Virus record (IMG/VR): IMGVR_UViG_3300021961_000124
Span: 1-55,870 of that record
Reading direction: 5' to 3' (one strand)
Source of the DNA: a virus
Taxonomy: Duplodnaviria > Caudoviricetes
DNA: 55,870 bases
Below, piece after piece: positions 18,195 through 47,443 of the stretch (position 1 is its first letter; the number at the start of each line of letters is the position of its first letter). A model generated the notes under the pieces. The model worked only from the letters and a program-made list of their open reading frames with translations, searched no databases and was not told the origin of the DNA. A program made the position numbers and the translations under genes.

Positions 18195-18330
18195 TTTGAG
18201 TATTTCCCTTTTGAACAGTGATTCTTAGTTTAGTAGGAGTAACAACAACTTGACGTTGTTGTTTATCCCTACTTACTATAGTTTTTGCCTTACCAGCATC
18301 AACCATACGTTTTATTTGATTTTGGTCCAT
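18175..18330 (-). CDS. 51-aa basic hypothetical protein
   Basis: Not in ORF track. MDQNQIKRMVDAGKAKTIVSRDKQQRQVVVTPTKLRITVQKGNTQNGKTTG; ATG overlaps the upstream stop (TAATG). Confidence 0.55.
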   Translation of the reverse strand: MDQNQIKRMVDAGKAKTIVSRDKQQRQVVVTPTKLRITVQKGNTQNGKTTG

Positions 18331-21300
18331 TAGTGTTTCCCTACAACGATTTCAATTACACCTTTTTCAGGAGACTCTTTATTTTCCAATGCCTTACCAA
18401 TAACTGTCCCAACTTCTGCTTCGTTATTGACCGTAGCATATCCCGGAATAGCAGCCGAAACTAACAAGTCACCTTTCTTAACTCGTCCTAGAACTTTACA
18501 TGGAACTCGTCCTTGTAGTGCAATTCCTGTTACATTATCACCTGTTAGTTCTGAGTTCATTAAGTGTGCAGGATTTGTAGTAACAACACCAGCAACTCTA
18601 CGATCACCTCTAAATATTGTAGTAGTAACTTCAGCTTCCCCGCCAAATACTAAAACTGTTCCTGGTTCGTAAACATTATCGCCTAAATAGTTTTCTGCTA
18701 AGTCAGCATAGTATGATTCAGTTGCAGTTCCACGGAACGTAGTTGCATACACATTAGCGTACTTTAATGTAGCACTACCTATGTTGTAGATGTTGTCAGT
18801 GTCAGGTAAAGCACCTGCTGAACTAAACTTCATAGGTACAACACTAGAACTTGTAGCACTGTCTGCTGTAACAATAGCAACTTGGCCTGCTGTTGTTTTA
18901 CCAGTATTAGCACCAATAGCAATACCAGTAGAAGCCTGCGTTCTTTCTCCAGGTGCTTCAATAAATGAGCTGTATATCCAGTCAACACCTAGACGCTTTT
19001 CACCTGCAAAGTTAGAAGCAGTTTGTAGCACACTCTGATTTATACCAGTACCGCTAATGTTTACGTTACCTGGTATTTGTAAGTCTGGATATGTTGGACT
19101 TGCGCCGCCAGAACCACCAACTGCACGTAGTATTTCACCTTGTGCTGGTGTTTTTATAACAAGTGTAGTTGTATCCAAACTCAACACTTCGTATGTTGAC
19201 GAGCCGCCAAGTTTCAATGAGTTAACTTGAATACTTCCATTTGCATCTGTCTTAACAATTGAGTTAACCTCGCCTGTCTTTGATACATTAGTATAACCAT
19301 AAATACCTGTACCTGTTTTGATTAGTGCATTTCCAGGATCAGATGCTGTAGGAACTTCAACAGTAAAGTCATTATCCTCAAGGCCGCCGCCATCGTGTAC
19401 TACTGTACTAAATGAAATTTGTGATGCAGGGCCTGTACTTGCTGCGCTTCTGCCTACAACTGTTTTTGTTGCAACGTCCTCAATTGCTGTTAGAGTAATA
19501 CCACCATCCTTTAATGACACAAAACCATTATCAGTAGTAAAGTTAGTTGAGCTAAATGCAGCAACACCTAGGTCGTTTTGCGTAATGCCTGTAGAATTAG
19601 CAAGAGTTGCAGCTTTATTCATTGTCAACTTGCTTTGCAAAATACCTGCACTAGCTGATATGTCACTGTTTACAACAGAGTTTGAACGAATTTGTAAACT
19701 TAGGTTAGTTTGTCTAGCACTAGGAACACCAGTTCCTGTTAGTGCTCTAGTTGCAGTAATAGACACATCACTGCCTGTATCCCAAACACCGTTTGCCCAT
19801 TCATCCATTGGCCCGTCAACTATTGCGCCACGGGTTCCTGTTGGGTTTCCGTTTACATAAACAGTAAGGTTTTGTCCAGTTTCAAATTGTCCACTAGTTG
19901 GCGTGTATATAATAGCTTGGGAGTTGCCTTCATAACTAGTAACACTAAGCACATCTATAACATTACCAGCACCTGTTGGAGTTTGTACTATATCGGCAAC
20001 TTCAAATGGACCTTCGTCGATATTTGTTACTATAACTTTCTTAAATCCTGTTGATAGTAACACTTGTGATGCAGCTATATTGTTGAGTTCAACATCTCTT
20101 AGTTTGTAAAGCGAATCACTATTTGCTTGTGCAGCGTCAACATATGCTTTAGTAGCAGCATCTGAATTTGATGTTGGTGCTCTTAGATTAGTAATAGAGT
20201 TTCCTGCTGCATTCAGGTCGTCAGTCATTGGCACCGCGCCGTTAGGAGCAAGAACACCTGGGCCTAACGGATTTGAAATAGCTGTACCATTGACATCGTA
20301 GCCTAAACGTCTATTAACATACCCACGTACAGCACTTTCTGTTGGTACTGTGTCCGATGCGTTATCAGTCATTGCTGAGTCTGTTGAGAACTCAGTAATA
20401 ACAACACCACGTTTAAAGCCTAGACCGTCAACGTCTGACAGTGCAAGCGAAGCACTAAATGTAACAGTACCAGTACCTTGGTCAACGCTAAAGAAGCGTC
20501 CTACACGGAAGATACCGTTTTGGTCTGTGCTTACATAGAACACACGACCTGCACCACGTTCTATTACTTCTTTGGCTTGATCTGATTCTCTTGGTAGACC
20601 GTAAATAAAATTAGGATAGTTACTTTGGTTAAAACCTCCTGTTCCTACATCTAGGAAGTCATGACCTGTTGCACGACATGTTGAAATGTTAACTGTAACA
20701 TTACCTGTTGCGCCTGACTTTAGACCTGCTCGTAATGTAATTGTTTCGTTACCTAATACAACAGGTCTTGATAAACCTACAACAGGTGTAATATTAATAT
20801 CAGATCCTGGAATTTCTAGCAAATCAACTATACCGTACTCATTACTATCAGACACAGGCCCAATGATGTTTCCTGCATTTACAGCACGATAGTTATAAAC
20901 ATAATATTTTTTGCCTCCCCATGTAGTCATTGGTGCTTCAACTAATGTTGCAGTACTCCATCCTAATGGTCTGTTTTCAATTGGCGTTCTGGCATTATTA
21001 TTAAGTCTAAATATTTCGTTATCGTCTAGTCCTACTTGTAAAGCAAGAACGGTATCGCCTATTGTGCCGCCTTTTGTAGTTCCGGTACCTGATAGCGCAA
21101 CTTCTTGAGCTTTTGCACTATCAATTACTAAACGAATGAAGTCGTAACCTGTGTCAAATCCTGCTTGGGACTGATCATTTGATAAAAGAGTTCCTAAACT
21201 ATCAGATCCTAAGAAACTAATAGATCTGTAAATTTGATCTGGATTCTCATCAAAAATAACAGCAGTTGATGGACGAATTGACAACACATCGGGTCTTACA

Positions 21301-24300
21301 ATATCACCTAATATGTGTGTTTGATTTCGTCTAAAGTTAATGTCATCTCCCCATGATACAGCTTCTAACAGTCCTGTGGATTGATATCGAACATCGGAAG
21401 TTGAAAATGATAGTTTATAAACTTGTCCATCTTTTTTAGGTGTACTTGCATCGACAAAAATATTTCCAGTAACTGATACAGCAGTTATTGCTCCAATTGG
21501 ATCAACTTCTGTAACTTCTACAATAGCATCATTGCCAATCCCAATACTCCCTGACGTACCTCCCATATATGTCCCATCAAGTGTAAAAGTGTCTCCTACA
21601 GTATAATCTGTTCCTGGTGTGGTTATTACTGCTCCGTAACCGTTATCAATTGATTTATATACTGTAAACACAGCCCCAATAGCAGAACCGTTTGCTATAA
21701 CATTAGTAGTTGGTATAGAACTATTAATTCCTTTTAAACCGCCTAGTATATGATTAATCTTAGTTACGTTTGCAACCTCATATCTAGCGAATGCTGGGAA
21801 TACAGGATGCCATAAATCAATTTCAGCTCTATTACTTGGAGCATTTGCCATGTCATATACATGGATATACAATTGCTCTGCGTTATTCCCATATCCAGTA
21901 TTATCAACACTTATTGGAACACTTGTAGGACCTAGATTTGTAACTGTTGAGTCTCCAGTTATTGGTCCTGTAATTTGCAATTCATTAGAGGTATCGAATG
22001 CACCATTTACATCTGTTAGATAAATTACATAAGATCCTGTTCCGCCATCAGATACTTGACTTGTTGATACTACAACTGTTCCTGTTGCACCTGTATTAAT
22101 CTGTGTAATTTCTTCGCCTTCAGTTAATATCTGTGCGCCAGTTAATGTTAAAATAGTATCAGCACTAAACGATTTAGCAGGTTCTGCCATATCTTGTACT
22201 AGGATTACTGCGTCAGGAATTTCGTTTGGATCTGAACCTTCTGCAATTAGACCGTATTCACCGTAACAAGATGATCCAGTAATAGATCTAATTTGTGATC
22301 CGTTTTTAGCATAGTATGAAACCCAGCAATAGTAGGTAAACATAGATACCATTTCTGATAATGCACCGTTCACTGCAACAAGACCATATCCTAAATCGTT
22401 TACCTGTGTAAAGTCATTGCCTAATATACTTCTGTTACCTGCTGTTTGTAGTGTTACTGATAATGGTGACGGAACACTTTGAACAACACGTCTTACAATA
22501 ACAGCAGTATTTGTATCAATCTCAACTTTTGCTTCTATTAAATCTGCTGCAACCCATGCGGTACTTGGATAAGAAGTTGCAGGTAATGCGTTAGTAGTGC
22601 CCGATGATATTACATTTTTTACTATAGTTACTAATGATTCTACTTCAGTTGCTTCGGTTGCACTTGCAGGTGTTCCTGTATTTGTTTGACCAGCATAGCT
22701 TTCTGTTACAATGTCACTAACAATTGATGCTAGCTGTGCCATTGCAGCAGCAGTTACTGATCTTTGGGCCAACGGTAATACACTAACTGCAAATGTAAAA
22801 TAAGATTTTGCAGCGTTAATAGATGCTGTATTGCCGCCATACTGTATATCATAGCTTAATGCATCAACAATATATCCTACGTCTCGGCGACACTTATCTT
22901 CATCATAAGTAAATCCTGCATAGTTACTGTTAATCCAAGTAGTTAGTTCAGTGCCAATGTATGCTCTATTTGCTTGCAGTAGCTCTCTTGCATAGCGTTT
23001 GTTAACATCAACACCTGGGTCTGTCCACACTAAGGGATCAGCATTTCCAGCACCATTTGAAAGAATATCAGTTATTTCATTAAATGCTGCTGTTATTGAA
23101 TTTGTAATTCCTACACTGCTTGAAACACTTGATAGAGCAAGAACTTGATTCTTTGCTTCTTCGATTGCATTTACTGTAACTGCTCTTTGTCCGCCTTCTC
23201 CTGTACTAACAACTAGTTCTGCAGATGTTGTACCACGTTGATAAGCAAGTCCGGAGGTAACTGCATTATAATTTGTACCAAACAACAAGTCATAACTAGT
23301 GCCTTGGATCATTATTTCAGTATCTCTTGCACAAATTTCTGAGTCAAATTCAAAATCACCAATTGCGTCTAGATTAACTCCGGTAATTAAGTTACTTGTA
23401 ATTCCTGAAAAACCATTTCCGTCATTAGAACTTCTATCAAGTATAAGTTGAGCAGTACCATATTCTGCATCGTATGCTGTACATGCGTTAATCTGGAATC
23501 GTCTGCCATCGATATAAAATGCGCTTGGAGTTTCAGGTTTTCTAATGAATAGGCCTTGGCCTGGTAAACTCTTAATGTTTACTCTAAATGGATCACTTGG
23601 ATCAACAAGTCCTACTACTTGAACTGCACTATTTCCTGTAAATGCGTCAACATACATTCCTCCACGGAATGATTGTTTGTTAACTGACTGTGAAAACGAT
23701 GCTGCTACTTGAATGTATGGAGATTTAGTTAGTACCTGTCCCTGCGGATCAAGTACACACATAAATCCACCGTGTCCTTGAACAGTAATATTACTAATGC
23801 GTGTTGCATCGTTCATTAAGAAAACATCCATCTCGTTGTTTCTTTTTGGTGGATTGTAATCTTCGTTAAATGCAAATACAACAGTACCTATTAACTGAGA
23901 TATAGTATCTGATGGTCCAAAAACTTCATCCCAATATGTTACCTGATCTAAAGAGAATGAACTTGACGAAGTATGTTCTGATTTACACTGGAAATAAAGT
24001 TCATCACCTAAACCTGTAACGAATTTAACAACGTTACCAACCCTGTATAAAGTTGACGAGGCCCATAGATCCGGATCTGCTTCTCCATTATAAAGGTCTG
24101 CTTCTGGATATTCTAGGTCAACGCCATATATCATTGCAGGTTCTTCGCCACGCAATAACGATTCTGCTATCGTATGAATGTATTGCATCCCTGCTACACA
24201 TCCATCTACATTAATGCCTCCTAATGATCCGTCGTAGAATTCACCTTGCATTTCTAGAGAAAATTCATTTCCTCCGTTTCTTAAATCTTTTACAAGTGCA

Positions 24301-27068
24301 TCAATAATAAATCCGGTATCACGTTTGCTTTTTGTTTCGCTATAATTACCAATCATAGCAGGGTAAGTATTATTAATGTATTCTACTACTTGCTCTTGTA
24401 TAAATTCTTTGTTATCAATAAGTGTTAGTGCCGCAGTTTCCCATTTGCCAATGTTTTTATAGCCAGCACCTACGTTTTTCTGCCTTCTTGGATCAGCTAC
24501 ATAATGGTATCCAAAATACCCATCAATATCACCTGTTAACGGGTTAACATATTCAACACCATTTGGCACACTAGTAACAGTAAGGATTGCTTTTGGTGCG
24601 CCCCCTTCGCCTAACTGATCATCTAAAATTTCAATAGTATCGCCAACTCTCCAGTCTTTACCTGAATTAACAATATTAATAGTTGTTATAGCACCATTTC
24701 CGTCAACTGTTATCTCAAATGTTGCATCTTTACCATAACCACTAGTTGAATATTGTGTAGGTATAATTGTATATGTTCCTGCTACACGATTTGCATCAGC
24801 AGGAGTAACTGTTTCTACACTTTCAATTAATGACTTACCTAATACTAGTCCATCAAACTCTCTATCTCTATAAAAGAATGAAGTTGCATATCGAGATTGC
24901 GAAACTCGTCTTTTAGGCTTAATAATAGAACGTCTAAATTCGTCACCATTGATTGTTACGTTTGGTGGAATACGAATAGGATAGTCTTCTTCATATACTC
25001 CTGATTCTACCATAACAGTAACTTGGGCTTCTCTAGAAATATTTCCGTATTCTAGTTCTTCGTCAAGTAAAAACACTTTTGGTTCTAATAGCTGAACTTC
25101 AATTTCATCTGTCTCAGTAATACTAACAGGTCTATCTCCTGATTCATGTCTATAGTCGATAATTCTTGCTAGAGCACCTGATGTGCGACCTCTAATAACC
25201 TTGCCTGGAATAATGTCTGTGTTTTCAGGACTAGCTTGATCTACAAATCCAAAGTTTCCGTTTCGTACATTAAGTCTGTAACTTCTTTCGCCGTCTACTA
25301 TTGCTGGCGCATCTAGTAGACCGTCATTAATAACATCTAGAATAACACTAAATTTACCATTGTAGGTTGATCCTGCATCTGGGTCTGGTATGTTTACAGA
25401 GTCATAAAATGGTTGTACGCGAGTCTGATAAAAAGTTTCAGATGGCTCGTCGGCCGGATTTGCACCTTCTGATAACCAAGTACTGTAGTCTAAGATGTAT
25501 TGAACAAGGTCCCTTGCATGTTCGATACCTGCTATAGTCTCAGTTCTTTGAGATCCAATTGCTTTCTTTGCAGAAGGACTTGAATAATATCTAACGCCAG
25601 CCCAGCGGGACAAATAGTTAGCGTTATCACCTAGCATGCCATCTAATGTCACTGCTTCAAGAATGTAACCTACGTCTCTTTGACAGATTTCAACATCGTA
25701 TGTTCCAGCAAAACTTGGATATGTTGCATCTATAAATGCAGTAACTTCTTTTTGTATAAACTCTTTGTTTGCTATAATAAGACTTCTTGCGTTAGTCCTT
25801 TGAATATCAGCACCGGAAATACCTGCCGAAAGTATTGTTGACGCAGTTGCTCCAGTGTTATAGGTCATTGTCTGCATCATTGGGCCTGGAAGATAAGCTG
25901 AGGATAGAATTACTTCTTCTGCTTTTCTTACAGCAGCATTGATTGTTCTGTATGCATATGCAGGATTACGTCCTTCTTTACCAACAGGAGTATTTGTTTG
26001 TCTGTCGTCACCGTTCTGGGCAACAAATATGTTTACAGCACTGGTTGCAGCAGCATTATCAACATAAAGTTTTGTTGCGGCTTGTAAATCATCAGGTCCA
26101 TTTGGCAGACCAAAACCAGAAAGTTCACCTGGATGATCTGATAAATTTAAAATACCTGTCATTGTGTCGCCTTGACGACGAACTACTGACTTTCTTGGTA
26201 TAGCAACATTGTTTAAAAAGTTTCCTGCTAGTGAGGTATCATACGCAGAGTCAGTAATAGTAAAGGTACCAGTACCACCGCTTAATAGTATACGTTCTGT
26301 TCCATTAACAGCGCCTAGTTCTGTTTCGTGTAACGATATTGTGTTTGAGTCTTGCACACGAACATACGCAATGCCGCCTGTAGTTACACCAAATGGGTCT
26401 GTTCCTGTAGAACGGAATATAAATGGAGCGCCATTATATGCTTGTGATAGACCATGTGAAGGAATATTTAGACTTCCTAGTACTAAATTGGTTACTGTTA
26501 AAGTGTAACTATTTGTACTAGTTGGTTCATCTGGCAAACGTAGGCCGCCGCCAGCAATATCTTTTGACTGATAATTTCTATCAGCATATGCTTTATCAAT
26601 TACTAAGGAGTCTATACTTAGGTCTGTTCCATACACAGAGTTAAATGTGTCAATAGCAGCCTGCGTTATTCTAACGTTTGCAATTGGTTGCGAGGCAGCG
26701 TTTAGCGGCCCGCCTAAAATAGGTTCAGGGTCGTTTGAAACTTTTGAAACTAGCTGTCTTACAATTAATTTTCCGTCTACGCTGAAATCAAAACCTATAG
26801 TATCAATAGTTCCATTTAGCTCATTATCAGATGCTAATTCTAAAAACGCTATACCAGAGCCATCTCTTTTAACTGCTGGTACCTTGTTTTCATTTCCTTC
26901 GTATGAATTAGGAGTATCCGAAAGGTCAGTTAAACTAATCTGGCCACCAATACCAAAAACAGCATACAGTTCAGTAAAGTTTTCATTTACCTTACGAAAC
27001 GATTCGCGTATACTATCGCCGGTACCGTCGTTACCTTCTACGCCAATATTAACATTTTGCTTTGCCAT
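18330..27068 (-). CDS. giant (2912 aa) virion structural/tail protein
   Basis: gp10-like N-terminus; AATK.YVD motifs; pectin-lyase-like GVYEE.YPI.IP..V.I.GDE.R; four (C/S)xRDxG(Y/F)I-type helical repeats; C-terminal YADLAENY...YEPGTV domain. Confidence 0.8.
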   Translation of the reverse strand: MAKQNVNIGVEGNDGTGDSIRESFRKVNENFTELYAVFGIGGQISLTDLSDTPNSYEGNENKVPAVKRDGSGIAFLELASDNELNGTIDTIGFDFSVDGKLIVRQLVSKVSNDPEPILGGPLNAASQPIANVRITQAAIDTFNSVYGTDLSIDSLVIDKAYADRNYQSKDIAGGGLRLPDEPTSTNSYTLTVTNLVLGSLNIPSHGLSQAYNGAPFIFRSTGTDPFGVTTGGIAYVRVQDSNTISLHETELGAVNGTERILLSGGTGTFTITDSAYDTSLAGNFLNNVAIPRKSVVRRQGDTMTGILNLSDHPGELSGFGLPNGPDDLQAATKLYVDNAAATSAVNIFVAQNGDDRQTNTPVGKEGRNPAYAYRTINAAVRKAEEVILSSAYLPGPMMQTMTYNTGATASTILSAGISGADIQRTNARSLIIANKEFIQKEVTAFIDATYPSFAGTYDVEICQRDVGYILEAVTLDGMLGDNANYLSRWAGVRYYSSPSAKKAIGSQRTETIAGIEHARDLVQYILDYSTWLSEGANPADEPSETFYQTRVQPFYDSVNIPDPDAGSTYNGKFSVILDVINDGLLDAPAIVDGERSYRLNVRNGNFGFVDQASPENTDIIPGKVIRGRTSGALARIIDYRHESGDRPVSITETDEIEVQLLEPKVFLLDEELEYGNISREAQVTVMVESGVYEEDYPIRIPPNVTINGDEFRRSIIKPKRRVSQSRYATSFFYRDREFDGLVLGKSLIESVETVTPADANRVAGTYTIIPTQYSTSGYGKDATFEITVDGNGAITTINIVNSGKDWRVGDTIEILDDQLGEGGAPKAILTVTSVPNGVEYVNPLTGDIDGYFGYHYVADPRRQKNVGAGYKNIGKWETAALTLIDNKEFIQEQVVEYINNTYPAMIGNYSETKSKRDTGFIIDALVKDLRNGGNEFSLEMQGEFYDGSLGGINVDGCVAGMQYIHTIAESLLRGEEPAMIYGVDLEYPEADLYNGEADPDLWASSTLYRVGNVVKFVTGLGDELYFQCKSEHTSSSSFSLDQVTYWDEVFGPSDTISQLIGTVVFAFNEDYNPPKRNNEMDVFLMNDATRISNITVQGHGGFMCVLDPQGQVLTKSPYIQVAASFSQSVNKQSFRGGMYVDAFTGNSAVQVVGLVDPSDPFRVNIKSLPGQGLFIRKPETPSAFYIDGRRFQINACTAYDAEYGTAQLILDRSSNDGNGFSGITSNLITGVNLDAIGDFEFDSEICARDTEIMIQGTSYDLLFGTNYNAVTSGLAYQRGTTSAELVVSTGEGGQRAVTVNAIEEAKNQVLALSSVSSSVGITNSITAAFNEITDILSNGAGNADPLVWTDPGVDVNKRYARELLQANRAYIGTELTTWINSNYAGFTYDEDKCRRDVGYIVDALSYDIQYGGNTASINAAKSYFTFAVSVLPLAQRSVTAAAMAQLASIVSDIVTESYAGQTNTGTPASATEATEVESLVTIVKNVISSGTTNALPATSYPSTAWVAADLIEAKVEIDTNTAVIVRRVVQSVPSPLSVTLQTAGNRSILGNDFTQVNDLGYGLVAVNGALSEMVSMFTYYCWVSYYAKNGSQIRSITGSSCYGEYGLIAEGSDPNEIPDAVILVQDMAEPAKSFSADTILTLTGAQILTEGEEITQINTGATGTVVVSTSQVSDGGTGSYVIYLTDVNGAFDTSNELQITGPITGDSTVTNLGPTSVPISVDNTGYGNNAEQLYIHVYDMANAPSNRAEIDLWHPVFPAFARYEVANVTKINHILGGLKGINSSIPTTNVIANGSAIGAVFTVYKSIDNGYGAVITTPGTDYTVGDTFTLDGTYMGGTSGSIGIGNDAIVEVTEVDPIGAITAVSVTGNIFVDASTPKKDGQVYKLSFSTSDVRYQSTGLLEAVSWGDDINFRRNQTHILGDIVRPDVLSIRPSTAVIFDENPDQIYRSISFLGSDSLGTLLSNDQSQAGFDTGYDFIRLVIDSAKAQEVALSGTGTTKGGTIGDTVLALQVGLDDNEIFRLNNNARTPIENRPLGWSTATLVEAPMTTWGGKKYYVYNYRAVNAGNIIGPVSDSNEYGIVDLLEIPGSDINITPVVGLSRPVVLGNETITLRAGLKSGATGNVTVNISTCRATGHDFLDVGTGGFNQSNYPNFIYGLPRESDQAKEVIERGAGRVFYVSTDQNGIFRVGRFFSVDQGTGTVTFSASLALSDVDGLGFKRGVVITEFSTDSAMTDNASDTVPTESAVRGYVNRRLGYDVNGTAISNPLGPGVLAPNGAVPMTDDLNAAGNSITNLRAPTSNSDAATKAYVDAAQANSDSLYKLRDVELNNIAASQVLLSTGFKKVIVTNIDEGPFEVADIVQTPTGAGNVIDVLSVTSYEGNSQAIIYTPTSGQFETGQNLTVYVNGNPTGTRGAIVDGPMDEWANGVWDTGSDVSITATRALTGTGVPSARQTNLSLQIRSNSVVNSDISASAGILQSKLTMNKAATLANSTGITQNDLGVAAFSSTNFTTDNGFVSLKDGGITLTAIEDVATKTVVGRSAASTGPASQISFSTVVHDGGGLEDNDFTVEVPTASDPGNALIKTGTGIYGYTNVSKTGEVNSIVKTDANGSIQVNSLKLGGSSTYEVLSLDTTTLVIKTPAQGEILRAVGGSGGASPTYPDLQIPGNVNISGTGINQSVLQTASNFAGEKRLGVDWIYSSFIEAPGERTQASTGIAIGANTGKTTAGQVAIVTADSATSSSVVPMKFSSAGALPDTDNIYNIGSATLKYANVYATTFRGTATESYYADLAENYLGDNVYEPGTVLVFGGEAEVTTTIFRGDRRVAGVVTTNPAHLMNSELTGDNVTGIALQGRVPCKVLGRVKKGDLLVSAAIPGYATVNNEAEVGTVIGKALENKESPEKGVIEIVVGKH

Positions 27069-44208: not shown

Positions 44209-44508
44209 CTAAACTTGTGTGGGTTTCGTACCCGTGATTGTGTACAGTTTCATTATAATAGCATCAACTGCTTCTTCTGTCAAATGTCCAAGAACATCAT
44301 CGTCCTCTGCTGTGATTCCGGGCAAGCGAACGAATCCATTTGCTACTCCGTCAGCGGCATTAAACACAGCGATCTCGTAGAGTCCACTGTCGCGACCGTA
44401 GCCGTCGTCAATGATGCTCAGATGGTACTTACCAAAATCCAATACTGCTTGATTACCCAAAATACCTGTGTCGCTCTTAGGCAACAATTGAAAATCTTTT
44501 AGTTTCAT
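44209..44508 (-). CDS. hypothetical protein
   Basis: 99 aa; YG...GLYEIAV and DDVLG.L motifs; AGGAG RBS and own promoter. Confidence 0.72.
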   Translation of the reverse strand: MKLKDFQLLPKSDTGILGNQAVLDFGKYHLSIIDDGYGRDSGLYEIAVFNAADGVANGFVRLPGITAEDDDVLGHLTEEAVDAIIMKLYTITGTKPTQV

Positions 44509-44528: not shown

Positions 44529-44556
44529 ATTATAAGACAGTTTTTAAAATTGTCAA
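44529..44556 (-). promoter_or_regulatory. sigma70-like promoter downstream of tRNA-Cys
   Basis: TTGACA-N16-TATAAT. Confidence 0.75.
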
Positions 44557-44565
44557 TTAAAAAAT

Positions 44566-44641
44566 TGGAGTAGCGGATGGGATTCGAACCCACATTATAC
44601 AGTTTTGCAGACTGCTGCCTAACCGCTCGGCGCACCGCTAC
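44566..44641 (-). tRNA. tRNA-Cys(GCA)
   Basis: Acceptor GTAGCGG/CCGCTAC, anticodon loop CT-GCA-AA, TTCGAAT, U73 and encoded CCA. Confidence 0.93.
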
Positions 44642-44646
44642 ATATA

Positions 44647-44733
44647 TGGTGGGGAAGGATGGATTTGCACCAACTCACCTGTAAAGGAACGGATTTACAG
44701 TCCGCCGCGACTCTCTAACTTCGCCGCTTCCCC
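44647..44733 (-). tRNA. tRNA-Tyr(GTA), non-canonical D/T loops
   Basis: Acceptor GGGGAAG/CTTCCCC, GCGGA-CTGTAAA-TCCGT, long variable arm, A73-CCA; T-loop TGCAAAT. Confidence 0.88.
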
Positions 44734-44738
44734 AAATT

Positions 44739-44813
44739 TGGCATAGGTGGAGAGATTCGAACTCCCATCGCAAGGTTTTGGAGACCTGCATCTTGCCATT
44801 AGACCACACCCAT
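44739..44813 (-). tRNA. tRNA-Trp(CCA)
   Basis: Acceptor ATGGGTG/CACCTAT, loop CT-CCA-AA, TTCGAAT, G73-CCA. Confidence 0.93.
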
Positions 44814-44824
44814 ATTCAACTCAT

Positions 44825-44858
44825 AAAAAAAGCCCCTAATATTGCTACTAGGGGCTTT
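44825..44858 (-). terminator. intrinsic terminator (attenuator 3:4 hairpin)
   Basis: AGCCCCUAGUA-GCAA-UAUUAGGGGCU, with a U7 tract ending 11 nt before tRNA-Trp. Confidence 0.9.
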
Positions 44859-44879
44859 CAGAACGTATTAAAAATCACG

Positions 44880-44942
44880 TCAAGACATACCCCACCATTT
44901 TGATAGGCACCAACGATAATACATTGTAGTTGTCTTGAACAT
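44880..44942 (-). CDS. 20-aa Trp/Tyr/Cys-rich attenuator leader peptide (MFKTTTMYYRWCLSKWWGMS)
   Basis: Not in ORF track. ATG TTC AAG ACA ACT ACA ATG TAT TAT CGT TGG TGC CTA TCA AAA TGG TGG GGT ATG TCT TGA; AAGGA RBS 8 nt upstream; lies between a promoter and a terminator. Confidence 0.82.
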   Translation of the reverse strand: MFKTTTMYYRWCLSKWWGMS

Positions 44943-44962
44943 GTTAATATTCCTTTGTTTAG

Positions 44963-45000
44963 TATTTATATACTATACTTTATTTATAATCTTTTGTCAA
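44963..45000 (-). promoter_or_regulatory. promoter(s) of the leader-tRNA(Trp,Tyr,Cys) unit
   Basis: TTGACA(45000-44995)-N17-TATAGT(44977-44972); two TATAAATA late-type motifs (44988-44981 and 44970-44963). Confidence 0.8.
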
Positions 45001-45011
45001 CCATTATTTTT

Positions 45012-45040
45012 AAAAAAGATCGGCACGTATGCCGACCTTC
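45012..45040 (-). terminator. intrinsic terminator after tRNA-Ala
   Basis: GGUCGGCA-UACG-UGCCGAUC followed by U6. Confidence 0.85.
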
Positions 45041-45049
45041 TTGATTGTT

Positions 45050-46036: not shown

Positions 46037-46399
46037 TTAGCCTGCGCTTCTTGTTATAAAGTTTACTCGTACTTTTGTTGGCTTGAAATACTTTTCGATA
46101 GTATCCTGTGCAATGCCAATGTCAACTGGCTTACACGAGAAAATATCAATATAAGCATCACCATTAATATCAACTAGGTGTCCACTTATATTGCTAGTCT
46201 CAATCATCTGACAGAAACTAATTCCTGCCTTGTCTGGGGCATGGGTAGCAAAGTGTTCAATCATTGGCTCCCCAAATGCAACCATATCAATGGCTGGTAC
46301 TAACTCTTTAATAAACTTATACACATTATCTTTGCTTGCTACTAATTCCTTATCACAAGCGGCGCAATCAAACATTGCATGATAACCCCAGTATGCCAT
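46037..46399 (-). CDS. pyruvoyl-dependent S-adenosylmethionine decarboxylase-like protein (copy 1)
   Basis: WGYH..FD...C, IDM...GEP, Q.IETSNISGH and YIDIFSCK motifs; start MAYW. Confidence 0.87.
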   Translation of the reverse strand: MAYWGYHAMFDCAACDKELVASKDNVYKFIKELVPAIDMVAFGEPMIEHFATHAPDKAGISFCQMIETSNISGHLVDINGDAYIDIFSCKPVDIGIAQDTIEKYFKPTKVRVNFITRSAG

Positions 46400-46436
46400 C
46401 AACAAATTCCTTTCCGTGTTCTCTAGGCATTGTGAT

Positions 46437-46939: not shown

Positions 46940-47305
46940 TTAATCCGCTTGTCGTGTAAGATAGTATTTTCGATATTTTTTGCATCCAAAAAACTCTTTC
47001 ATACTAGTCTCTACAACTGCTTGATCAAACGGTTTACAACTAAAAACATCCAAATAAATGTGTCCTAAGCTATCTACAAAGTGTGCTGTAATACTACTAG
47101 TTACTATTACCTGAACTACAGTAAAGCCCGCTTTGTCTAAGAATTTTTCCGCCGTATATTCGATTCGAGGTTCGCCAATTGGTTCCATATCAATATCAAC
47201 AACCAACTTTCGAATCCATCGATCAACGTTTGAAAAATCTGACATTAAACTATTATCACAGCCTGAACAATCTAATATTAGATGGTAACCCCAAAACGTA
47301 TTCAT
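46940..47305 (-). CDS. pyruvoyl-dependent S-adenosylmethionine decarboxylase-like protein (copy 2)
   Basis: WGYHLILDC..C, IDM...GEP, Q.IVTSSITAH and YLDVFSCK motifs; GGAGG RBS. Confidence 0.87.
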   Translation of the reverse strand: MNTFWGYHLILDCSGCDNSLMSDFSNVDRWIRKLVVDIDMEPIGEPRIEYTAEKFLDKAGFTVVQVIVTSSITAHFVDSLGHIYLDVFSCKPFDQAVVETSMKEFFGCKKYRKYYLTRQAD

Positions 47306-47353: not shown

Positions 47354-47443
47354 TGGCGGAAGTGGTAGGATTCGAACCCACGGAAGAGTCTCCCCTTCAA
47401 CTGATTAGTAATCAGCCGCCTTAAGCCACTCGGCCACACTTCC
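47354..47443 (-). tRNA. tRNA-Ser with ACT anticodon
   Basis: GGAAGTG/CACTTCC, G73-CCA, long variable arm GAAGGG-GAGA-CTCTTC, anticodon arm GCTGA-TT-ACT-AA-TCAGT. Confidence 0.88.

Follow-up and report, generated by a model that had tools for sequence, protein, structure and literature searches.

Positions 45,000 to 44,566 on the minus strand of the IMG/VR virus record IMGVR_UViG_3300021961_000124, a 55,870-nt stretch of DNA that was analysed over its whole length (the window), most probably hold a ribosome-mediated (leader-peptide) transcription attenuator in front of a phage transfer RNA (tRNA) operon. The window derives from a tailed phage, with PHROGs matches to tail fibre and structural proteins, a DNA ligase and an endonuclease. 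An earlier note, made from the sequence alone, had described in this region a terminator, a promoter, a ribosome-binding site, a 20-codon open reading frame (ORF), a second terminator, three tRNA genes and the promoter of the next gene, and had interpreted them as an attenuator responding to failing Trp, Tyr and Cys decoding. All of these elements were found at the coordinates it gave, and its interpretation is supported by several independent kinds of comparative evidence. What was computed comprises the parts themselves, their conservation, the covariation of helix 1:2 and of the terminator, and a frame-specific match between leader codons and downstream anticodons. The same comparisons make it likely that the leader acts as a programmable sensor of decoding capacity, in which the codon set is rewritten as the operon gains or loses a tRNA and the cassette would be transcribed only while its codons are read slowly.

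The predicted elements of the locus, with the method of detection in brackets, are as follows.

45125-45050, minus strand: tRNA-Ala (ARAGORN and Rfam)
about 45014..45041, minus strand: intrinsic terminator closing the upstream unit (156-aa gene and tRNA-Ala), a hairpin of -15.5 kcal/mol with a T-run (custom hairpin finder)
44972..45000, minus strand: sigma-70-type promoter TTGACA-17-TATAGT of the leader/tRNA transcript (consensus scan, 11/12 positions)
44958..44979, minus strand: inverted repeat over the -10 element and the transcript 5' end (folds as a hairpin; palindromic block kept across the family)
44951..44955, minus strand: Shine-Dalgarno sequence AAGGA, 8 nt ahead of the ATG
44880..44942, minus strand: leader ORF of 20 codons, MFKTTTMYYRWCLSKWWGMS (ORF list)
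44929..44943, minus strand: segment 1, the 5' arm of helix P1, start codon included (folding, -22.8 kcal/mol)
44907..44921, minus strand: sensor codons Tyr8, Tyr9, Arg10, Trp11 and Cys12, positions 9-13 before the stop
44891..44907, minus strand: inner hairpin P2, CCUAUCA (codons 12-15) with UGGUGGG (minimum-energy folds)
44876..44893, minus strand: segment 2, the G-run GGGGU (44893-44889) and the stop-codon arm UGUCUUGACGUG (folds)
44851..44867, minus strand: segment 3, UACGUU and GCCCC, the latter in the terminator left arm (folds; antiterminator -14.2 kcal/mol)
44825..44858, minus strand: intrinsic terminator (3:4) with a 14-bp stem, GCAA loop and U7 (-20.8 kcal/mol)
44739..44813, minus strand: tRNA-Trp (CCA), first of the putatively regulated genes (ARAGORN and Rfam)
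44647..44733, minus strand: tRNA-Tyr (GUA) (ARAGORN and Rfam)
44566..44641, minus strand: tRNA-Cys (GCA), last of the putatively regulated genes (ARAGORN and Rfam)
44529..44556, minus strand: promoter TTGACA-16-TATAAT of the next gene (99 aa, 44508-44209) (consensus, 12/12)

The three tRNA genes are separated by spacers of 5 nt each, and the separate promoter at 44556-44529 bounds the regulated unit. The terminator at 44858-44825 was exceptionally stable for its composition (z-score (z) of -5.35; 0/200 shuffles as stable) and ends 11 nt ahead of tRNA-Trp. No promoter-like site was detected by the consensus scan at 44971-44814 on the minus strand. The consensus scanner listed neither of the minus-strand terminators; folding confirmed both. 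Among 290 small ORFs of 18-25 codons in the window, at least six Trp, Tyr or Cys residues were present in 11, and all three residues were in addition present in 3, the leader ORF among them. The binomial probability of the leader's Trp/Tyr/Cys content was 0.005-0.010. In the window alone, and after selection from 56 kb, this enrichment is only suggestive.

Relatives of the leader were sought through the locus and its flanking genes. A nucleotide search of the region against GenBank phages matched the tRNAs alone, and the window's own leader, terminator and Trp-Tyr junction, used as exact and back-translated patterns, had no matches in viral contigs. Of the flanking genes, the phosphoesterase had only distant relatives in GenBank phages, and the 99-aa neighbour was found there in four Methylophilales phage records at 39% identity. 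Eighty viral contigs with the phosphoesterase at 80-91% identity carried quite different tRNA arrays, with Trp, Tyr or Cys tRNAs within mixed arrays in 18 of them; the arrays of four contigs with the upstream 156-aa gene were likewise different. Using the 99-aa gene as the anchor in a metagenome collection gave 34 loci, six of them with a leader homologue at 72-74% identity over about 180-205 nt. All six homologues lie upstream of a tRNA-Trp, followed in each case by a different set of tRNAs. Conserved blocks were then made into two degenerate patterns, which retrieved 91 and 101 stretches in viral contigs, chance matches lacking a tRNA amounting to five for the first pattern and sixteen loci for the second. 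A profile from 50 distinct leaders finally defined 111 homologous modules in uncultivated phage contigs, counted one per sequence.

A typical family leader gave a single 40-nt terminator-like match, in a Pelagibacter phage, and no cultured phage with the module was found among GenBank phages. In a scan of a genome collection, none of the matches listed, at least 120, was a family member by profile, which says nothing firm about cellular genomes. Among the public runs, which consist of contigs, one estuary run contains an identical leader and one divergent variant.

As a separate observation, the 99-aa gene (44209-44508, minus strand) was absent from the 84 relatives collected through other genes and accompanied the leader/tRNA module in six marine or estuarine metagenome contigs. 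This distribution suggests that the module and the 99-aa gene move together.

The leader ORF is conserved throughout the family, as the attenuator reading requires. All 101 members complete at the 5' end (of 111) keep an ORF, and 99 of them a Shine-Dalgarno-like motif, which is weaker in L223 and L232; as in this class of attenuator, a short ORF preceded by a ribosome-binding site lies ahead of the tRNAs on the same transcript, its translation being predicted. In 98 of the 101, the start codon lies in the 5' arm of helix 1:2 and the in-frame stop codon in the 3' arm, the ORF having a length of 18 codons in 3, 19 in 43, 20 in 27, 21 in 7 and 22 in 18. Since lengths of 18-22 codons all fit between the paired start and stop, each length change was a whole number of codons. 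The remaining three ORFs end at a TAG just before the G-run (15 codons). The promoter is likewise retained in the 50-sequence family alignment, TTGAC being invariant and the -10 element kept. The inverted repeat at 44958-44979 (about columns 41-60 of the family alignment) occurs in two types, GTATAGTATA..TAC and GTGTATTATAAATACAT; a repressor may bind it as an operator, or it may form a 5' stem-loop that stabilises the leader RNA.

Gene order is equally constrained. The first tRNA is tRNA-Trp(CCA) in 95 of 96 complete modules, and in the exception, L167, the 76 nt ahead of the called tRNA look by eye like a tRNA-Trp missed by ARAGORN. The tRNA starts at most 15 nt past the U-tract in 76/100 modules, 61 of which have it no more than about 1 nt away; terminator and tRNA are separated by structured inserts of 72-93 nt in 18/100. 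No promoter-like site was found in the longer terminator-tRNA inserts. With the tRNAs close to the U-tract and no promoter-like site in the inserts, transcription of the tRNAs must pass the terminator. The earlier note had named a promoter downstream of the terminator as evidence that would defeat its reading; none lies between terminator and tRNAs in the window or in the longer inserts, and the family thus has the arrangement expected of an attenuator, a terminator between leader ORF and tRNAs with no promoter after it.

The inserts themselves merit description. Most of them (L107, L110, L129, L142, L144, L169, L181, L184, L205, L209, L223, L233 and others) consist of a long closing stem and two or three inner hairpins, at about -20 to -26 kcal/mol. 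The folds are cloverleaf-like, and ARAGORN calls no tRNA there. They could represent a degenerate tRNA, a processing element or a small mobile element. By eye, the inserts of L164 and L202 contain an apparent second short ORF with a common ...EYWRWMK... motif and two Trp codons.

The codon content of the leader follows the tRNA content of the operon. Covariation of leader codons with downstream anticodons, which the earlier note had proposed as a check, was observed, and in the ORF frame only. For 64 distinct leader/operon combinations, with tRNAs assigned by a 60-nt spacing rule, the mean number of cognate codons per leader in modules with and without the tRNA was as follows.

Ile (UAU; ATA codons): 3.0 with the tRNA vs 0.25 without; 8 and 56 modules; p 1.8e-8
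Tyr (GUA): 2.0 vs 0.38; 4 and 60 modules; p 8.8e-5
Gln (UUG): 2.89 vs 0.80; 9 and 55 modules; p 1.4e-5
Ser (UGA): 3.55 vs 1.75; 11 and 53 modules; p 2.4e-4
Cys (GCA): 1.27 vs 0.75; 40 and 24 modules; p 2.6e-4
Arg (ACG): 1.0 vs 0.12; 5 and 59 modules; p 0.0016
Glu (UUC): 0.5 vs 0.02; 2 and 62 modules; p 7.9e-5

With Trp excluded, the total of cognate codons was 207, compared with 132.2 ± 7.3 for permuted operons (0/10,000 reach 207); with Trp, Cys and Pro all excluded, it was 110, compared with 46.9 ± 6.6. The signal had a z of 10.2 in frame 0, and of -2.0 and -1.5 for the triplets of frames +1 and +2. When the codon sets were permuted among the 15 anticodons and the leader-operon pairs kept fixed, none of 20,000 permutations reached 207 (maximum 200, mean 89 ± 29). 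Both the frame control and the codon-set permutation leave sequence relatedness intact. An earlier run on 52 modules, permuted within two clades, had given 175 vs 131.4 ± 5.7 (0/20,000 reach). The correspondence of leader codons to downstream tRNAs, a defining feature of this class of attenuator, is thereby present in the family.

The correspondence was also followed through individual changes of cargo. All eight operons with tRNA-Ile(UAU) have a leader with two or more ATA codons, and tRNA-Tyr stands behind each of the five distinct leaders with two or more Tyr codons, that of the window included. In L216, CGC-CGC replaces the usual Pro codons and tRNA-Arg(ACG) replaces tRNA-Pro. Phylogenetically independent pairs were drawn on a tree built without the sensor codons, two thresholds being tried for four anticodons. 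Pairs changing in the predicted and in the opposite direction numbered 4.7 and 0 for UAU (Ile), 3.0 and 0 for GUA (Tyr), 1.6 and 0 for UUG (Gln), 2.8 and 0.1 for UGA (Ser), 1.1 and 0 for ACG (Arg), 3.9 and 0 for GCA (Cys), 2.4 and 1.0 for UGG (Pro), and 0 and 0.1 for CAU (Met). Summed over these eight anticodons, about 19.5 pairs changed in the predicted direction and about 1.2 in the opposite one.

A further set of ATA-rich leaders (L201, L215, L227, L231, L238, L221 and L235) has a tRNA with a CAU anticodon where UAU was expected. These CAU 'Met' tRNAs may be tRNA-Ile2, whose lysidine-modified CAU reads ATA.

To relate the codons to RNA structure, the leader was folded as a whole, in segments and with ribosome footprints masked. 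The whole window leader folded at -48.4 kcal/mol (z -5.43). An 8-bp pairing of segments 1 and 2 had been proposed by the earlier note; it is present as the core of a longer helix between the start-codon and stop-codon regions, spanning 44943-44929 with 44890-44876 (-22.8 kcal/mol, z -3.7, 0/500 shuffles as stable). The 2:3 antiterminator, in which GGGGU (44893-44889) pairs with GCCCC and closes a GACGUG/UACGUU stem, has an energy of -14.2 kcal/mol, matched by 1.4% of 1000 shuffles. In the folds, segment 2 pairs with either segment 1 or segment 3, and the inner hairpin P2 sequesters the G-run in minimum-energy folds when no ribosome is present. The terminator wins every full-length fold of the window leader; this was rejected as a refutation, because classical attenuators are likewise settled by the kinetics and order of folding.

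Minimum-energy folds with masked footprints gave, for the window leader, the antiterminator that the earlier note had proposed. It was formed with a ribosome footprint at Tyr8-Cys12 and the transcript cut ahead of the terminator 3' arm, and was lost when the footprint was moved to Trp16, Trp17 or the stop codon. The suspicion that the two distal Trp codons are structural was borne out, since Trp16, Trp17 and Gly18 form the G-run, which is invariant (GGG) in 50/50 aligned leaders. The scan was then extended to the family by setting a 29-nt footprint at every codon of 63 leaders. The fraction of leaders predicted to form the antiterminator was 0.06-0.16 with the A-site 0-7 codons before the stop, 0.71 at 8, 0.95 at 9 and about 1.0 further upstream. 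Cognate codons peak at 8 and 9 codons before the stop (0.76 and 0.71, compared with 0.1-0.2 elsewhere), the matching codons falling within a stretch of five at the point where the structure switches, and a TGG lies 7-11 codons ahead of the stop in 62/64 modules. The codon peak and the footprint scan together indicate that the sensor codons would be the last ones at which a waiting ribosome leaves the G-run free. All six Trp, Tyr and Cys codons had been taken as the sensor in the earlier note; only Tyr8, Tyr9, Trp11 and Cys12 fall in the sensing window, and the number of sensory codons is therefore four.

Conservation of the pairings was assessed sequence by sequence with explicit pair counts; RNAalifold on a MAFFT alignment was hampered by indels in the middle of the ORF and yielded no more than fragments. 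For helix 1:2 together with the terminator, 84.9% of cells are paired, compared with 35-52% for slid partners, and both sides have changed in 44 cells, compared with 14.3 ± 2.9 in shuffles (0/500 reach). The first base of the start codon forms an A-U pair in 32 sequences, a G-C pair in 18 and is unpaired in none, and one terminator stem pair covaries between C-G (29 sequences) and U-A (14). The pairing potential of the antiterminator was 88.3% of cells, compared with 37-62% in slid controls. The antiterminator of the main family is longer than the window's. That of L118 encloses a small spacer hairpin and joins the G-run and stop-codon arm to the terminator left arm and the 3' portion of the spacer, at -20.8 kcal/mol alone and -25.6 kcal/mol in context.

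These results are consistent with a mechanism analogous to classical attenuation. A strong promoter would start the transcript, the first 63 coding nucleotides of which would be translated while being made. Segment 2 would have two partners, the start-codon region (1:2, with the inner hairpin hiding the G-run) or the spacer and terminator left arm (2:3). Fast reading of the Tyr, Trp and Cys codons would bring the ribosome to the stop codon, where it covers segment 2, and the terminator would form and halt transcription 11 nt before tRNA-Trp. If charged tRNAs are scarce, a ribosome waiting at the sensor codons would leave segment 2 free, followed by formation of the antiterminator and read-through. 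RNase P and other processing enzymes would then free tRNA-Trp, tRNA-Tyr and tRNA-Cys from the read-through transcript. In this scheme we infer that stalling raises read-through, that the polymerase pauses and is coupled to the ribosome, and that a physiological trigger exists. Because the tRNAs produced would relieve the stall, decoding capacity would be under negative feedback. The trigger may be a host tRNA pool ill suited to phage codon usage, or the loss of host tRNAs during infection; anticodon-nuclease defences would be compatible with the latter.

Several observations nevertheless weigh against an attenuator of this kind, and the rival explanations draw on them. On the structural side, the earlier note had a ribosome stalled at Tyr-Tyr-Arg-Trp-Cys mask segment 1 and free segment 2; in the folds segment 2 is free and the antiterminator forms, but a ribosome standing at the sensor codons leaves the 5' arm of helix 1:2 physically uncovered. 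Covariation of the antiterminator is weak (5 double-sided cells vs 2.3 in shuffles, reached by 26/500), and its invariance was imposed in part by the search patterns. Ribosome-free minimum-energy folds have the terminator C-run paired upstream, the criterion for the antiterminator, in 55/63 leaders; in the window leader the 1:2 state wins. Without a ribosome, only 0.6-4 kcal/mol separate that fold from the 1:2 state, and L149 pairs its C-run with the Shine-Dalgarno region instead of the G-run. Given the small gap and the 55 of 63 folds, whether the untranslated default is to terminate, as in trp, or to read through depends on folding kinetics. In the folding model, the sign of the response to stalling is the same whichever default holds. 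As to the trigger, a stall due to amino-acid starvation would persist however much tRNA was made; the circuit would correct a tRNA shortage, not an amino-acid shortage, making tRNA abundance the relevant variable.

In one alternative, leader translation controls tRNA output by some other coupling or with the opposite sign. The position of the ribosome might, for instance, influence transcript stability or processing by RNase P or RNase E, or read-through might be promoted by fast translation. In favour of this alternative, the immediate 5' leader of pre-tRNA-Trp consists of the terminator hairpin and U-tract, and the 1:2 and 2:3 states are nearly isoenergetic. We nonetheless regard it as unlikely: in the folds of the 63 leaders, the antiterminator is blocked by a ribosome standing 0-7 codons ahead of the stop and allowed by one standing 8 or more codons ahead, so that a stall would give read-through, and the classical four-segment layout is accompanied by covariation in helix 1:2 and the terminator.

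The remaining adverse points are comparative. No leader homologue was found in the 84 flanking-gene relatives (80 contigs with the phosphoesterase and 4 with the 156-aa gene). In two freshwater relatives, L052 (772-809) and L039 (820-857), terminator-like hairpins lacking an ORF stand 7-10 nt ahead of tRNA-Thr and tRNA-Arg, and a third, L018 (1513-1543), has a consensus promoter, its spacer itself a hairpin, directly ahead of tRNA-Cys. The ORF-less hairpins and the L018 promoter indicate that tRNA expression is arranged differently in the window's closest flanking-gene relatives. An orphan cassette with a leaky terminator had been favoured after the 84 leaderless relatives and was dropped once the 99-aa-gene anchor gave leader homologues. 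The codon match also has gaps. No association was seen for Pro (1.70 vs 1.46, p 0.09), Met, Arg(GCG), Gly, Lys, Ala or Ser(GCU), several of these being represented by 1-3 cases, and no single-anticodon sign test on the independent pairs reaches 0.05, because the pairs are too few. The match is one-sided, in that tRNA-Gln occurs behind Gln-rich leaders only (9/9 operons), yet 9 of 18 Gln-rich leaders have tRNA-Gln. By the 60-nt rule tRNA-Trp stands alone in 10/64 modules, most of which still have Cys and Pro codons; among those 10, L223 and L233 have further tRNAs past larger gaps, and the one called tRNA of L167 is tRNA-Cys. The unmatched codons fit a loss of tRNA genes faster than leaders adapt, and some, above all the CC-rich Pro codons, may be kept for pairing with the G-run. 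Finally, one public RNA run covers tRNA-like parts only.

A second alternative is that the promoter, small ORF and terminator form an independent small gene for a 20-residue peptide or a small RNA. The tRNAs would then be expressed because the terminator leaks constitutively, and the codon match would arise by coincidence or general phage codon bias. The Trp/Tyr/Cys enrichment of the window leader alone is only about 1-4% unusual, hairpins without an ORF precede the tRNAs in the two freshwater relatives, and many leaders keep Cys and Pro codons with tRNA-Trp alone behind them. We consider such a gene very unlikely, since the match is frame-specific and beats all 10,000 operon and 20,000 codon-assignment permutations, the matching codons are confined to five positions at the switch point, tRNA-Trp comes first in 95/96 modules and adjoins the U-tract, and general codon bias would not put three ATA codons only ahead of tRNA-Ile(UAU). 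Direct, T-box-like sensing, in which codon-like triplets pair with anticodons and stabilise the antiterminator with no ribosome, could use the triplets matching downstream anticodons that adjoin the alternative terminator/antiterminator fold, but is highly improbable given a match only in the frame set by the conserved Shine-Dalgarno, start and stop (z 10.2 vs -2.0 and -1.5), length changes that all keep the frame, several different codons in tandem, no T-box match in Rfam even at E up to 10, and a leader transcript of about 150 nt, shorter than T-box leaders generally are.

The attenuator reading was next compared with known systems. The E. coli leaders trpL, hisL, pheL, leuL, thrL and ilvL have in common with the module a short ORF with a Shine-Dalgarno sequence, regulatory codons at the antiterminator/terminator decision point, and four segments pairing as 1:2, 2:3 and 3:4; the energies of trpL show the same pattern as the -22.8, -14.2 and -20.8 kcal/mol of the module. 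Classical leaders regulate enzymes, whereas the module would regulate tRNAs. They contain a run of one amino acid, whereas the module has mixed codons (Trp with Tyr, Cys, Ile-ATA, Gln, Ser or Arg) that change with operon content. The module differs further in that its start codon lies inside helix 1:2 and that the element is viral. At Rfam gathering thresholds only the tRNAs of the locus passed, and the module does not belong to the curated leader families. The best sub-threshold leaders were Phe_leader (RF01859; 23.2 bits vs a gathering threshold of 55), Trp_leader (RF00513; 16.9 vs 41) and Thr_leader (RF00506; 15.2 vs 55), scores that indicate no sequence or structure homology to classical leaders.

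Attenuation of the translation apparatus has a precedent in the pheM leader of E. coli pheST, which controls an aminoacyl-tRNA synthetase. The pheM leader is likewise a leader-peptide attenuator, its output is the synthetase and it responds to charging; the output of the module would be tRNA, and it would correct tRNA abundance and could not correct an amino-acid shortage. T-box riboswitches, too, attenuate transcription and report a specific tRNA by codon-anticodon recognition. They bind uncharged tRNA directly and have no ORF, whereas the signal of the module is frame-specific, confined to the translated frame and tied to the Shine-Dalgarno sequence, start and stop. Among phages, cassettes of promoter and stem-loop and short ORFs have been reported in the older literature for the tRNA regions of T4-like phages and T5; these regions likewise have early-type consensus promoters, terminators and very short ORFs among the tRNA genes. 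We know of no description of a codon-anticodon correspondence or an alternative antiterminator in the T4-like or T5 cassettes. A full-text literature search, the reach of which did not extend to the older T4/T5 tRNA-region literature, returned no such description either, and no attenuation upstream of tRNA genes in phages or in other systems.

Genes for tRNAs are common in phages, and recent work connects them with codon-usage mismatch and with the destruction of tRNAs by host defences. To our knowledge, little has been established about the control of their expression. If the attenuator reading is correct, this would be, as far as the literature searched extends, the first leader-peptide attenuation reported for tRNA genes and the first in a virus, and the phage would answer a mismatch of the host tRNA pool, its degradation or anticodon-nuclease cleavage with exactly the missing tRNAs. 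A self-contained sensor would explain how tRNA cassettes shuffle between phages and yet stay regulated, why tRNA-Trp heads the operon in nearly every module, and what purpose many of the very short ORFs in phage tRNA regions serve. Read in this way, the module applies a known mechanism to a new class of regulated product, and its sensor is rewritten as the cargo changes. It would extend a textbook mechanism to tRNAs as a new class of output, in what would be the shortest possible feedback loop in translation. At about 190 nt and modular, it could serve as a natural part for circuits responding to specific codons.

Elsewhere in the window, four further features were recorded. ARAGORN places a tRNA-Ser with anticodon ACU at 47354-47443 on the minus strand; an A at position 34 is unusual for a Ser tRNA reading AGY codons. 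Two paralogous ORFs, at 46940-47305 and about 46037-46400, both on the minus strand, are interspersed among the tRNA genes and have a common N-terminal motif, WGYH..DC..C. An ORF of 2912 aa occupies 18330-27068 on the minus strand. On the plus strand, a 483-aa protein encoded at 37434-38885 matches, at E 4.8e-111, a PHROG with the annotation tryptophan halogenase, which is unusual among the auxiliary genes of phages.

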